From Octopus vulgaris (taxonomy: Eukaryota), in NCBI GenBank assembly GCA_951406725.2, contig OX597833.1:5022001-5086000 (forward strand): a stretch of 64,000 nt of DNA, read 5' to 3'. The notes beneath the pieces are model-generated. The model saw nothing but the letters and a program-made list of their open reading frames with translations. It searched no databases and was not told the DNA's origin. The translations under genes and the position numbers were made by a program. Below are positions 4,488 to 63,418 of the stretch, in pieces; position 1 is the stretch's first letter, and every line of letters starts with the position of its first letter.

Positions 4488-5081
4488 TAAAAAAAATAGA
4501 ATACGAGTACTAAGTTCTAAAACAACTTGTTATTAGTTTCGCCATACCTAAGCGACATATTTAGAATTATACACACACGCACGCGCGCACACACACACAC
4601 ACATACACACACACACACACACACACACACGCACGCACACGCACGCACGCACGCACTCACACGCATACACATATTCATACAAGTATTTGAAAGTGCGCGA
4701 CTAAATGCACATATACTTACACACATACAAACACACACACACACACACACTCACATATATATATATATACACACACATATACATACATACATACATACAT
4801 ATATGCATATATACATATATATATGCATATATACATATATATATATGCATATATACATATATATATATGCATATATACATATATATATACATACATTATA
4901 TATATATACACACACATATATATATATATATACATATATGTACATACATATATATATGTGTATATATATGTGTATATATATGTATATATTATTAAAAACA
5001 AGTGGATATATTCCACTGAAACTAGGTAAATAAAACCTTCGAACTGGGACGATCAGTAGCGACACCTGCAAGTCTGACTAC

Positions 5082-5124
5082 GCTGCATTGATAAGGGGCA
5101 ACAACCCTGAAACATGTCTGTAGC
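5082..5124 (+). ncRNA. Type I hammerhead ribozyme motif, U3-A8 core variant
   Basis: GCTGCA-TTGATAA-GGGG(CAACAA)CCCT-GAA-ACATGT-C-TGTAGC; stems I, II and palindromic III all pair; predicted cleavage after C5118. Confidence 0.7.
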
Positions 5125-5891
5125 TGTCTGACTGGCAGGATGAAGCGGCTGACCTCCCTTGTTCGAAGGTTTATAATGGACGCAGGTTGTGTGTCAAATA
5201 GCTAGCTTGAGGCGGTGGCCTCTTGGGGCTAATCAGCGACAGCTTTAGTCTTATATTTATAAGACTGCCATATAGTATGGCGATATATATATATATATAT
5301 ATATATATATATATATATATATATGGCTTAAAATACACAGTATTAAGATGCGTGCTACTAATAGTGTCCTCTTTTGGAGACCCGTGTGTAGACAGGTTTT
5401 ATAGCGTGCCTTGCGTCTGCAGGCATTCTTCACGCTGAGATTGCTTGGAGACAGAAGCTAGATTATAAAACCTGCCATGACAAACAAATGTTTTTACTTC
5501 AAGGAACTTATTAGTGGCTCGTATCTTTATTTTGTGTACATTAAACATTTATTTCTCGCTGTCTCTGGATGGGGTAAATTTTTTATGACCTTATCTTGGC
5601 AGAACAGTAATCTCTCTCTCTCTCTCTCTCTCTCTCTCTCTCTCTCTCTCTCTCTATATATATATATATATATATATATATATATATATATATATATATA
5701 CATACATACATACATACATAATAAACATTTAAAGCATCGCCACGCGCGCATCCACGGGTTACATGTTTATTAAGACCACAGTCCATACATATACATACCT
5801 GCACATACACACACACACACATACACACATATATATATATATATACATACATACATAGACACACATACATACACACACACACACACACATA

Positions 5892-6590
5892 CAGGGGTTG
5901 GACAAAATAATGGGAAACACCTAGCATCATAGCATCATAATTTTGAAATATCTATAAAACCGTCAAAAGCATGTTTATTTTTATGTTTTTTTTATTTATT
6001 ATTAGTGTTGCTTAATATGTTTTGCTAAAATTGCTGTTCCTTTTAAGATATCATCAGAAAAAGCTAATTAAAAGTAATTAAAATGACATATCTATCGGAC
6101 TTTCAAAGAGGTCAAATTGTTGGTGCTCGTAAGGCAGGCGCTAGCGTAAAAAAAACAGCCGAAATGTTTGCTGTATCAAGAAGTACTGTCTCGAAAGTAA
6201 TGGCAGCCTTTGAGAAAGCGGGAAAAACCACCTCGTCGAAGCAAAACTCCGGAAGAAAACCAAAACTTTCAGATAGGAACCGTCGGACTCTTACGCGAAT
6301 TGTTAGAAAGGATCACAAAAGTACAGCTCCCAAAATTACTGCAGAGCTTAATGACCTCCTCGAGAACCCAGTTTCCACAAAAACTGTTTGCCGGGAGCTG
6401 CACAAAACCAGATTTCACGGGAGGGCTGCAATCAGAAAACCACTACTTTCAAAAACAAACGTTGCAAAGCGTTTAGACTGGAGAAAAAACCTACAGAATT
6501 GGTCCCTAGAACAGTGGAAGAATGTTACTTTCTCGGACGAGTCATCCTTTACCTTATTTCCGACCACTAGTCGAGTATACGTGTGGAGAC
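5892..6590 (+). mobile_element. Tc1-family DNA transposon, 5' part (left TIR plus truncated transposase)
   Basis: TA|CAGGGGTTGGACAAAATAATGG TIR; truncated by a (CA)n tract. Confidence 0.85.
6083..6590 (+). pseudogene. Truncated Tc1 transposase (HTH, GRKPKL linker, first catalytic D)
   Basis: LSDFQRGQIVG...SRSTVSKV...SGRKPKLS...RKPLLSK...W..EQWKNVTFSDESSF; the rest of the DDE domain is missing. Confidence 0.85.
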
Positions 6591-6684
6591 ACACACACAC
6601 ACACACACACACACACACACACACACACACACACATATATATATATATATATATATATATATATATATATATGTATGTGTGTCT

Positions 6685-6942
6685 ACCTCGGCGGAATTTG
6701 AACTAAGAACTTAGCAGCAGACGAAATACCTATTTCTTTACTACCGACAAGGGGCTAAACACAGAGGAGACAAACAAGGAGAGACACACGGATTAAGTGC
6801 GTAACTGGTACTTAATTTATCGACCCCGAAAGGATGAAAGGCAAAGTCGACCTCGGCTGAATTTGAACTCAGAACGTAACGGCAGACGAAATACGGCTAA
6901 GCATTTCGCCCGGCGTGCTAACGGTTCTGCCAGCTCGCAGCC
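6685..6942 (-). mobile_element. SINE family C (composite)
   Basis: Same head and CATCCTTTCGGGGTCGATAAA core as copies at 46091, 52783 and 39820. Confidence 0.75.
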
Positions 6943-7332
6943 TTTATGAATCCATATCTATAAACAGACAGAGGACACTTAATTGTTGATAGAGACACAC
7001 ATGATGCACAGGCATAAACAGGCCAAACCAGAACCAGTTGATTCGGTTTACTGGGAAATGAAACAACAACGAAAGCGTTGAAAGAAAATCAAAATTTCCC
7101 ACAAAAATACAATCAATATGATGGGAAAAAACAGAAGACCATTCAGACACTTTAGACACACGCACACACACACAAACATGCATACACACCTACAAAGAAC
7201 TATACACAGATATAAAAAAAATGTCATATGATCACACTCTAGGTGCAAGTGTACCGAACCGACCAAGCAGAAATGCACGAACACACAAATAAATACACGC
7301 ACACACATATATAAAATATATGCACATATATA

Positions 7333-60924: not shown

Positions 60925-61010
60925 GTGAGTACTAAAAATTTGTTTTACAAACACGCATTTGCACTCACACTGATATATGCTCTGAAATATATATTTAAGA
61001 TACATAACTA

Positions 61011-61264
61011 TTGGGTTGGTGCAGAATTATTGCGGCTTTTCCTTTTTTATTTCTACAAATTTTATTCAACAAAAACAATAACAATATTTAACAAAAACAT
61101 CTTTAAGTGACGGTCTGACCGTCTGCTAAGCAAATGAGAAGTAGTAATTGAAGTAGATGGTGAATATGCCCCGGAATAATCGTTTAAAGATGTTTTTTGT
61201 TACAAGTTTTTGTTGAATAAAATTTGCTGAAAAACAAAGCCGCAATAGTTATGCCTCAATCCAA
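61011..61264 (+). mobile_element. Mariner-derived non-autonomous element
   Basis: TA|TTGGGTTGGTGCAGAATTATTGCGGCTTT resembles the Hsmar1/MADE1 TIR; reciprocal end AAAGCCGCAATAGTTATGCCTCAATCCAA|TA; inner remnant VVIEVDGEY* of the transposase C-terminus. Confidence 0.65.
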
Positions 61265-61853
61265 TAAAAATGGTGATAGTGACTTCGAAGTTTAGACCTG
61301 CTCATCTTTATCGGACTCTCTCTCTCTCTCTCTCTCTCCAAATCTGTCTATATATATATATGTGCGTGTGTGTGTGTGTGTGTGTGTGTATGTGTGTGTG
61401 TGTGTGTGTGTGTGTGTGTACTCATGTATCGATGTATGCATACATAAAAAAAAAGATTTCCTTCTCAAGCCATGCCGACTCAAAAGGACCGCTTTACCGG
61501 TTTCAAACCACTGGGCCATTGCGCCTCCCCTATAACCGATAGTAACCTTAAAGCTTTGGTGGATGGAGCTTGGTCTCTGCCGCATCTTTTCCGTAGTAGC
61601 TACATATTTTCCTATGTCCAGAATGTCATCATGTGCAGAGGTTTTTTTTATTAAAAAGCTTTATGTCGCCGATATAACGAGAGGACATTACTAGGAATAT
61701 GGATCTTTATGTTACGCAATATTTGAGTTGTTCATTCGACCATGTCATGAAGCGGTTGACTTACATCTCCAGCAAAGCCAACGTCAATCACTGCACGGTT
61801 CTCTGGGTTTTAGAATCTATTATTAACTTGAAATATATATCTCCGTACGTCTA

Positions 61854-62193
61854 GGCGTAGGAGTGGCTGTGTGGTAAGTAGCTTGCTAACCAACCACATG
61901 GTTCTGGGTTCAGTCCCACTGCGTGGCATCTTGGGCAACTGTCTTCTGCTATAGCCCCGGGCCGACCAAAGCCTTGTGAGTGGATTTGGTAGACGGAAAC
62001 TGAAAGAAGCCTGTCGTATATATGGATGTGTGTGCGTGTGTGTTTGTTCCCCTAGCATTGCTTGACAACCGATGCTGGTGTGTTTACGTCCCCGTCACTT
62101 AGTGGTTCGGCAAAAAGAGACTGATAGAATAAGTACTGGGCTTACAAAAAGAATAAGTCCCGGGGTCGATTTGCTCGACCAAAGGCGGTGCTC
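61854..62193 (+). mobile_element. SINE family A, 3'-truncated
   Basis: Homology to family A; further degenerate pieces follow to about 62830. Confidence 0.8.
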
Positions 62194-63383
62194 CGCCGGA
62201 ATTCGGATTCAGTACGGCTGCGCAGTGCCGTTAGCATGTCGGGCAAGTGTCTTCTATTATAGCACCGGGTTTACCAATGCTTTGTGAGCGGATTTGAGGG
62301 ACGGAAACAGAAAGAAGCCCGTCGCGTACACGCACAACACACACACACACACACACATACACACACACATACCAACACCAGGATTTATTTTTAAAGCCTA
62401 GTACTCATTCTATTAGTTTCTTTTGCCGAACCGATAAGTTACGGGGACGTAAACACACCAGCACCGGTTGCCGACCGGTGATGGGGGACAAACACAGGCA
62501 CGCACGCACACGCACACACACACATCATGTAACAGACCAGACTATCGGGGGTTGTTCTACATCGCTCATCACAATGCGCTTTGCCCCATTTTAGCCATCG
62601 CGTAATACCACCCCGTGTGTGCGTACGCGCATTGAGTTTGTCCCCTACTACAACATGACAACTGCTGTTGGTTTGTTTACGTTTCCGTACCTTGGCGGTT
62701 TAGAAAAGGAGACGATATAAATAGATACGAGACTTAAAAAGAAAGCAAGTAACGGTGTCCATTTGTTCCACCGAAGCCTTCAAGGCGGTGCCCCAGCATG
62801 GCCGCAGATTAATGAGTGAAACAGGTGAAAGACAAAGGATCCATTTTGTGTTGAATCCATGCTGCTTCCAACACCATGTACCATCGTCTTACCGAGTTTT
62901 GGATGGATTAAATCCATTTCTGCCATCGGTCAATGGCCCCTTTCTTTACTGCCACAACAATGGCGGACGGTCTGCCTTGTTTTGTCCACGTGACTAACAA
63001 GTCTCAACTGGTTGATATCAACACCGCAAAACCCTATATCACTCTCGCTAATTATCTCCACACACATCTCTACTGTGTAATCAATACCAGTCGGTGGCTA
63101 TAGTGATATTACATCCACGCATTTATGATGCAATCCGTAAGGAGATAAGGACACTTGCAAATATTGATTTTGCTGGGAAGCTATTGAGTGCTGTCACAGA
63201 TACAAGGCGACATTTCTGCTAGGAAGTGTACGATCAGTCAGAGACTCTTTGGCAGCGACATTGTTGTGTCTTTAAAGTAAAGACTGTTTGCCAACGTTAG
63301 GTTGGCAAATAGCCTTTCGCGTGTGTACCGTTGACGATTTTTTTTCCTCTGTCTTCCCTTCTCTGGATCTTTCCTTCTCCTAT

Positions 63384-63418
63384 GTTTCCGACGAAGAGCT
63401 CGGCTCGAAACGTTAAAC
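63384..63418 (+). ncRNA. Minimal (Penelope-type) hammerhead motif, U4 changed to C
   Basis: GTTT-CCGACGA-A-GAGC(TCG)GCTC-GAA-ACGT-T-AAAC in a pyrimidine-rich segment that ends at (TA)n. Confidence 0.55.

Follow-up and report, generated by a model that had tools for sequence, protein, structure and literature searches.

The locus considered here raises the question of where the many hammerhead ribozyme motifs in one stretch of octopus DNA come from. The window, i.e., the whole stretch of 64,000 nucleotides that was analysed (Octopus vulgaris, contig OX597833.1, positions 5,022,001 to 5,086,000), has 37% G+C and many microsatellites, and an initial annotation had listed in it nine hammerhead sites and a remnant. 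We consider it likely that the motifs are the ribozyme-bearing 3' ends (pseudo-long terminal repeats, pseudo-LTRs) of several Penelope-like element (PLE) families, together with short derivatives of these. Three architectures, Hydra-type, minimal, and long-helix-II, lie side by side. The sites are for the most part commonplace debris of retroelements, of a type already known, plus one under-described structural variant. The overall system is an expected one, since PLE hammerheads occur by the thousand in animals and a TA-targeting, hammerhead-bearing PLE has already been published from octopus. The families were traced in the window, in sequencing runs placed on its positions 12757-12995, and in related loci from other animals. 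Motifs are named by one of their end coordinates (Table 1).

Hammerhead architectures and their (TA)n setting

In a relaxed scan of the window, nine folds reached a score of at least 36; 60 local dinucleotide shuffles gave 0.05 such folds on average and never more than one. The score was devised after the sites had been inspected. One of the nine, at 13582 on the minus strand, turned out to be a false positive: it lies in a multi-copy repeat, another copy of which, at 6950, has no core. A second scan for short motifs gave five with a score of at least 30, against 0.05 in the shuffles, including 36165 (score 30, where the shuffle mean is 0.05) and an AT-rich artefact at 15185. Hammerhead elements are found within about 80 nt of every coordinate in the initial annotation; the remnant that it placed at 60349 is real, its core and helix III being gone, and seven additional motifs were found. 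The claim that the stems pair each time was overstated: three helices and a plausible core are present in five of the nine sites (5088, 12902, the 26189/26180 pair, 43587, and 63388), and the other four (16176, 22676, 43912, and 44796) are damaged. The palindromic stem III, said to be nearly always present, is seen in seven of the nine, the exceptions being the 26189/26180 pair, with a 4-bp hairpin, and 44796.

Positions within the motifs follow the hammerhead numbering, in which a G at position 17 blocks cleavage. The type I arrangement (CUGANGA, GAAA, and UH, with helices I-III and open at helix I) is found in 12902, 10262, and the 26189 pair. It is found in 5088, 43587, and 63388 only if covariation of positions 3 and 8 or a change at U4 is allowed, and the decayed copies lack it. 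The Rfam search that had been proposed as a check gave no match at the gathering score in the window; the best match on the best element was Hammerhead_3 with 16 bits (gathering score 48.5). This blank is uninformative, because clear Hydra hammerheads in three control loci (L125, L128, and L133) are likewise missed.

Eight sites, not distinguished as a class in the initial annotation, combine a helix II domain of 53-77 nt with an 8-nt palindromic helix III (ACNNNNGT). The window contains 8 instances of the word GAAAC with an 8-nt palindrome after it, compared with a mean of 0.47 and a maximum of 3 in 100 shuffles. If one mismatch is allowed, a CUGANGA core lies 53-77 nt upstream in 8/8 of these cases vs. 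131/830 other GAAA sites (binomial p 4e-7). As judged from their sequences, the long-helix-II sites appear to fall into six families (10262/31246; 11003; 12902/16176; 19769; 22676; 43912), because no BLAST or alignment similarity is seen among the groups; a single family for 22676 and 43912 is unsupported, as they reveal no clear homology. Of the seven sites scored, four show pairing in helix I as well as in helix II (10262, 11003, 12902, and 16176, with scores of 25-31), and the other three pair poorly (scores of 6-13), 19769 having been left out of this scoring. Between 10262 and 31246 there is a two-sided change in the inner hairpin, from C-G to T-A. As a control, the same pattern was looked for in other DNA, where 117 metagenome and 5 viral loci matched with a best score of 23. 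None of these 122 matches has both helices and the palindrome (two passed both helices, neither being palindromic), and there are no animal examples of the long-helix-II form among them.

The minimal type is marked by a bulge after A9, an altered 3-8 pair, or both, together with a palindrome of 4-6 nt. The 5088 motif sits in a TA-bounded unit of 293 bp (4990-5282) with a long extended helix I; the unit folds with a z of -8.1, and its antisense folds equally (z -8.2). The core of 43587, of which there is one copy only, is a natural-looking combination of G3-C8 and U4A. In engineered mutants, G3-C8 was shown to restore activity partly (PMC11167929).

The association with (TA)n stated in the initial annotation holds. 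Of 14 motifs, 11 have a (TA)5+ run no more than 150 bp away, compared with 28% of 5000 random unmasked positions (p about 5e-5), and 7 of the 14 have such runs on both sides within 350 bp, compared with 13% of random positions; 19769, 23302, and 25709, recognised by eye or later, were left out. An insertion into TA with an inverted and tailed structure is seen in the Hydra-type unit at 26126-26318, which consists of an inverted pair and a one-sided tail.

Penelope-like element remnants and the proposed origin of the motifs

The PLE remnant noted earlier at 17950-18920 is real. It was matched to 25 proteins by phmmer, with a best E of 6.8e-9, and covers profile positions 351-542 and, weakly, 599-706, its own diagnostic motifs being decayed or missing. 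It is assigned to the Hydra clade because its full-length homologues (n = 119) carry RW[KR] (116), DK[TS] (117), and CxCx5C (116), and never DKG (0); these clade marks are defined in section 11 of PMC8557442. Three smaller pieces of Hydra-type open reading frames (ORFs) are listed in Table 1. Downstream of the main remnant there is just a bare CTGAAGA at 19117, and decayed hammerhead candidates follow the ORF ends at 25640 and 23669.

The best-preserved Hydra-type motifs are those of the 26189/26180 pair, with a canonical core, a U.U at the base of helix II, and an ACAG/CTGT hairpin as the 4-bp helix III. They lie within a perfect palindrome that has a 75-nt tail on one side alone, a layout matching that of locus L125; if read through, the palindrome would bury the cores in a hairpin. 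For the 25709, 23302, and 26189 motifs, the better reading is that they are 3' ends of autonomous elements truncated on the 5' side. The remnant had been suggested as a possible mobiliser of all the ribozyme-bearing families. It does account for motifs of the 26189 type, because Hydra-clade hammerheads have a short helix II and a hairpin helix III; no sequence link was found that would join it to the families with a palindromic helix III.

For comparison, 14 Hydra loci (L123-L136) were used, which consist of animal-like DNA within bacterial genome bins. They seem to be DNA of animal hosts that ended up in prokaryotic assemblies through binning, and several have (TA)n runs. The ORF end is included in 11 of the loci, and in nine of these a sense hammerhead follows 86-200 nt downstream, with helix II segments of 12-31 nt. 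TA-bounded hammerhead fragments in which helix III is a short palindrome are present in three loci (L125, L132, and L133). Two TA-bounded pairs in L125 are arranged head-to-head as in 26126-26243, and one of their arms matches, by eye, the 3' end of the ORF-bearing element of L133. Since these loci show the same fragments and pairs, the landscape of the window is not special to octopus. No PLE loci were found in viral contigs.

The proposed mechanism is as follows. The PLE protein, a reverse transcriptase with a GIY-YIG nuclease, would nick (TA)n and copy the RNA from its 3' end, as published for the clade; PLE proteins nick AT-rich DNA and prime reverse transcription (PMC11167929). As seen in the related loci, the hammerhead would be located near the 3' end, some 90-200 nt beyond the stop codon, so that nearly each 5'-truncated insertion would be a hammerhead fragment of 150-300 bp between TA runs. 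Such truncated copying of PLE RNA into (TA)n may yield most of the fragments, and inversion at insertion could produce head-to-head pairs with the layout observed at 26126-26243. At least the short 12902/16176 unit, with its fixed self-pairing ends and its copies and variants, may multiply non-autonomously. Most genomic copies would be decaying and inert. The autonomous partner of the long-helix-II form is most likely also a PLE.

According to the computed folds, the palindromic helix III does not form within one molecule and reaches 6-8 bp between two copies. The 8-nt palindrome has +2.4 kcal/mol as an internal hairpin vs. -6.4 to -11.1 as a two-copy duplex, and the lowest-energy dimer of 12902 is predicted to be a double hammerhead (-44.0). 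Because the helix would form only between two molecules, cleavage is expected to need a dimer or the help of a protein. Dimers could come from tandem source loci elsewhere, the window itself having no tandem copy, or from pairing in trans. One PLE hammerhead was reported to cleave only with protein and to be dispensable for insertion in vitro (PMC11167929). Of the claims made earlier on origin, those of PLE ancestry, of several families unrelated to one another, and of a helix III palindrome that would suit dimers are supported, whereas the retrozyme reading is left without its defining tandem array.

Table 1. Positions of hammerhead motifs and of Penelope-like element remnants in the window
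Feature	Position	Strand	Details
Type I hammerhead, minimal	5088-5118	+	U3-A8 core; 6-nt palindromic helix III ACATGT
Long-helix-II hammerhead	10262-10340	+	60-nt domain, inner hairpin, canonical core, ACAATTGT; missed by initial annotation
Decayed long-helix-II hammerhead	11003-11093	+	72 nt, U4C, ACATATGT; missed by initial annotation
Long-helix-II hammerhead	12831-12902	-	53 nt, canonical core, ACATATGT, C17
Second 12902-family copy	16105-16176	-	94% over 196 bp; A6G in core
Decayed Hydra-clade PLE ORF, reverse transcriptase thumb to GIY-YIG	17961-18913	+	stops, frameshifts; profile independent E-value (iE) 6.9e-13
Decayed long-helix-II motif	19693-19769	-	58 nt, G5A, ACGCGCGT; partial second copy 5721-5784
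Decayed long-helix-II motif	22604-22676	-	54 nt, canonical core, 3-bp helix II, ACAGCTGT, G17
Decayed Hydra-type hammerhead	23260-23302	-	about 370 nt downstream of Hydra ORF end; by eye against File S2 of PMC8557442
Decayed C-terminal end of Hydra-type PLE ORF	23669-23854	-	profile iE 9.1e-5
Last residues of Hydra-type ORF, weak match	25575-25640	+	profile iE 0.057 vs. 0.5 in reversed controls
Decayed Hydra-type hammerhead	25709-25760	+	69 nt after ORF end, about 20 nt before (TA)n; by eye
Perfect 118-bp palindrome	26126-26243		head-to-head Hydra-type hammerheads 26189-26227 (+) and 26180-26142 (-); TA-bounded
10262-family relative	31151-31246	-	(TA)n run within helix II domain; helix I and II pairing lost
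Short decayed Hydra-type ORF fragment	31992-32117	+	profile iE 2.7e-5
Candidate minimal hammerhead	36136-36165	-	U3-A8, bulge after A9, ATAT, helix I 2 bp
Short hammerhead	43551-43587	-	G3-C8, U4A, bulge after A9, AATATT; single copy
Decayed long-helix-II motif	43840-43912	-	54 nt, U4A, helix II broken, ACAGCTGT
Decayed minimal hammerhead	44769-44796	-	GAGC/GCTC helix II; A6U, G8C; helix III non-palindromic
Hammerhead remnant	60368-60396	+	helix II and GAAA alone
Minimal hammerhead	63388-63414	+	U4C, bulge after A9, ACGT

The 12902/16176 family and competing explanations

The initial annotation had proposed several non-autonomous families. Unrelated families do exist, and a repeated unit with fixed ends is seen only for 12902/16176. 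The 12902 unit is a TA-bounded element of 207 bp (12773-12979), the ends of which pair over 15 bp (13 Watson-Crick pairs and 2 G.U). It shares its 5' end with 16176, which is probably dead; the 3' ends are nearly the same, and this is the sole two-copy unit of its kind. A TA duplication is unreadable within the (TA)n, and the 3' end differs in 16176. The numbers of contigs matching 12757-12995 (1179 in run X1, 91 in X9, and 143 in X10, the last two guessed to be RNA) indicate a multi-copy family with subfamilies. Many contigs diverge at 12927 into another upstream segment (46 in X1), which suggests that the ribozyme module is common to at least two subfamilies. Summed contig depth is highest over the ribozyme; it does not represent copy number and was not used.

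In the variant tables of this family, which are unphased, use contig depth as a rough weight, and include some differences private to the window copy, none of the 30 positions of the core, helix III, and the base of helix II varies at 3% or more, vs. 5 of 15 internal-loop positions (Fisher p 0.002); in the loop and tail, 12 of 60 positions vary (p 0.007). Seven changes fall on positions to which a partner is assigned; in six of them pairing is preserved as G.U, and the remaining one is at a CpG. The 68-nt 5' leader is as invariant as the core (2/68 positions variable), so that core-specific conservation is absent on the 5' side. The expectation that the core is better conserved than its flanks is therefore borne out with respect to the loops, in this one family, and not with respect to the leader. 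The helix variants at 12821-12872 are mostly A-to-G on the ribozyme strand, and those at 12821 and 12828 are higher in X9 than in X1. A-to-I editing is prevalent in cephalopods. The A-to-G pattern could reflect wobble-tolerant selection or be a footprint of RNA editing.

A more far-reaching proposal can be put forward tentatively, and we think it somewhat unlikely to hold as a whole. The long-helix-II form may be an active obligate-dimer architecture with a strict ACNNNNGT helix III, defining several TA-targeting non-autonomous octopod families that short-helix-II descriptors have missed. With eight sites per 64 kb, the genome might then be among the most ribozyme-dense in animals; the helix II insert might serve as a PLE-protein binding or dimerisation platform, and the A-to-G changes might stem from RNA editing before reinsertion. 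If active, this class would extend the range of natural structures of the most thoroughly studied small ribozyme and would mean that hammerheads are undercounted by genome surveys using short-loop descriptors. It would also provide a young multi-copy 200-nt element for probing the role of the hammerhead in PLEs (dimer cleavage, protein assistance, and circle formation).

Several observations, together with the invariant leader, speak against a PLE origin of the motifs or the dimer scheme attached to it. The window lacks an intact PLE, and none of the palindromic-helix-III families could be linked by sequence to a reverse transcriptase ORF. The long-helix-II motif is absent beside the 14 Hydra loci (47.5 kb), and the palindromic-helix-III units have no match above 40 nt in these non-octopus loci. 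The ORF links of 23302 and 25709 depend on decayed motifs read by eye. A pairing of 12902 and 16176 as pseudo-LTRs of one element was considered and dropped, as the profile search gave no ORF match between them. For 10262, 5088, 43587, and 63388, another dimer fold was computed to be more stable than the double hammerhead. The self-comparison of the window contains no tandem hammerhead-bearing copies, and there is no head-to-tail joint among the contig rows listed for 12757-12995. Finally, none of the raw reads of run X22 (1934 million letters) falls on the 12902 element, which is unexplained; this run possibly comes from another organism or contains filtered reads.

Among the other explanations, the one that survives best, although we find it rather improbable, is that the long-helix-II units are separate self-cleaving short RNAs, solo retrozyme-like circles put into TA tracts by another reverse transcriptase, with just the Hydra-type and minimal motifs being PLE ends. 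It would agree with the absence of the long-helix-II motif from all 14 Hydra loci and from the Hydra rows of File S2 (PMC8557442), with the closed-rod fold that the 12902 unit shows on the ribozyme strand and not on the other (z -2.4 vs. -0.5), and with the presence of 12902-unit contigs in the two runs guessed to be RNA. However, the long-helix-II units share with PLE hammerheads a type I topology, a helix III that is palindromic, and the targeting of TA, Hydra is the sole PLE clade sampled for these motifs, the window has no tandem arrays, and animal retrozymes are themselves argued to be PLE derivatives.

It is less probable still, with only a small chance of being right, that the short TA-bounded units are miniature inverted-repeat transposable elements (MITEs) of the Tc1/mariner type, with a TA target and terminal inverted repeats, in which an old hammerhead sequence is incidental. 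The 15-bp terminal pairing of 12902, the Tc1-type transposase remnant at 6068-6590 (Pfam HTH_Tnp_Tc3_2, E 7.6e-15, split by a microsatellite), and several TA-bounded inverted repeats without hammerheads would be in keeping with this. Yet the terminal pairing suits an RNA on one strand, because it contains two G.U and no A.C, and a common variant at 12965 puts another G opposite U. Moreover, the 3' terminus of the 12902 unit is not kept in 16176, terminal repeats are missing from most other units, and the hammerhead core is conserved across the 12902 family.

It is very unlikely that the motifs are host-retained ribozymes regulating the ABCA5-like gene, whose introns hold seven of them. The frame 60558-60923 is 100% identical over 122 residues to an Octopus vulgaris ABCA5-like protein (84% in O. 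bimaculoides), further exons lie at 28061-28117 and 57869-57955, and conserved intronic hammerheads are known from amniotes (PMC3088659). Against this, all five motifs in the long intron 28118-57868 (31246, 36165, 43587, 43912, and 44796) are antisense to the gene, most motif copies are decayed, and they belong to dispersed repeat families. Two others, 60368 (dead) and 63388, are in sense; the motifs are too few to test for selection against cutting of the pre-mRNA.

Chance folding in AT-rich, microsatellite-rich DNA, which the post-inspection tuning of the scores, one false positive in the top nine, and the heavy decay of several sites might recall, is refuted for the set by the counts given above (9 folds vs. 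0.05; 8 GAAAC-palindrome words vs. 0.47; the core upstream in 8/8 vs. 131/830; 0/122 microbial or viral matches complete), and only 36165, 19769, 23302, and 25709 could individually be due to chance.

Some further features were noted in the window. Seven long inverted repeats (3819-4118, 24535-24769, 42414-42663, 42680-42961, 43181-43355, 58741-58944, and 63809-63880) have no intact hammerheads; TA or AAT runs stand at the borders of most, and they may be MITEs or inverted retroelement ends. The repeat at 42680-42961, which contains a core-like remnant near 42832, is related to that at 58741-58944. The reading frame 26560-26950 gives C2H2 zinc-finger matches and is probably a retroelement end.

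Comparison with known systems

Penelope elements are abundant in cephalopods (PMC8967140, PMC10085705). Craig et al. (2021, PMC8557442) described Hydra-1_Obim from Octopus bimaculoides, which prefers (TA)n and has a hammerhead near its 3' end. Hydra-clade PLEs in that account resemble the ORF remnants of the window in their C-terminal GIY-YIG, RWK, DKT, and CxCx5C marks and (TA)n target, and they share inverted 5'-truncated copies with it. Their hammerheads, like 26189, 25709, and 23302, are of type I and close to the 3' end, and many have U.U at the foot of helix II and a hairpin helix III of the ACAG/CTGT type. In File S2 their loops II measure 3-10 nt and helix III is non-palindromic, which sets them apart from the palindromic motifs and the long-helix-II motifs of the window. 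Another PLE group with cephalopod hosts and a (TA)n target, Naiad, has "half cores" (Naiad_Ovul and Naiad_Esco, File S1) in which the core halves, at 35-50 nt, are spaced more widely than descriptors permit, a trait shared with motifs of the window. In the two cephalopod 3' ends compared by eye, however, GAAAC precedes CTGATGA, opposite to the order in the window, and there is no evident similarity; a Naiad origin of the long-helix-II form was rejected for now on this motif order and because nine GAAAC-palindrome words gave no match in the supplement of PMC8557442, where line wrapping can hide some. The Naiad order corresponds to a type II or III hammerhead, and Naiads may carry a permuted ribozyme.

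No description of hammerheads with a long or extended helix II was found in the accessible parts of the literature, although Lunse 2017 and Arkhipova 2017 may cover them. Nor was an octopus or cephalopod hammerhead survey found there, and supplementary alignments could already show long-helix-II motifs.

Animal retrozymes of the non-LTR kind are, like the units of the window, non-coding, AT-rich, and self-pairing, with 150-400 nt and a type I hammerhead (PMC7229834; bioRxiv 10.64898/2026.07.22.740005). Solo monomers are dispersed in genomes, and a PLE pseudo-LTR origin has been argued (Cervera and de la Pena 2020, PMC7229834; PMC7761336; PMC6765202; Li, Clavereau, Pollet 2026). Retrozymes are defined by tandem arrays and circular RNA, whereas the window units are solo and TA-bounded.

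The closest likeness of 5088, 36165, 43587, 44796, 60368, and 63388 is to the minimal PLE hammerheads of Cervera and de la Pena (2014, PMC4209133). That work reported thousands of dispersed single motifs with high diversity per genome and opposite-strand pairs, a bulge after A9, U3-A8 covariation, a palindromic helix III, and weak dimer-dependent cleavage; U3-A8 and palindromic loops also appear in PMC3088659. The inference of ribozyme-bearing, PLE-derived families drawn in the initial annotation is, as a whole, already in print for other animals (PMC4209133; bioRxiv 10.64898/2026.07.22.740005). The hammerheads described in PMC4209133 have a helix II of 6-8 bp with a small loop, whereas the window has domains of 53-77 nt and, in 43587, a natural G3-C8/U4A core, both unseen in that description. 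The nearest long-loop cases are two spike-moss PLE motifs with loops II of 29-34 nt, flagged as deviating in PMC8557442.

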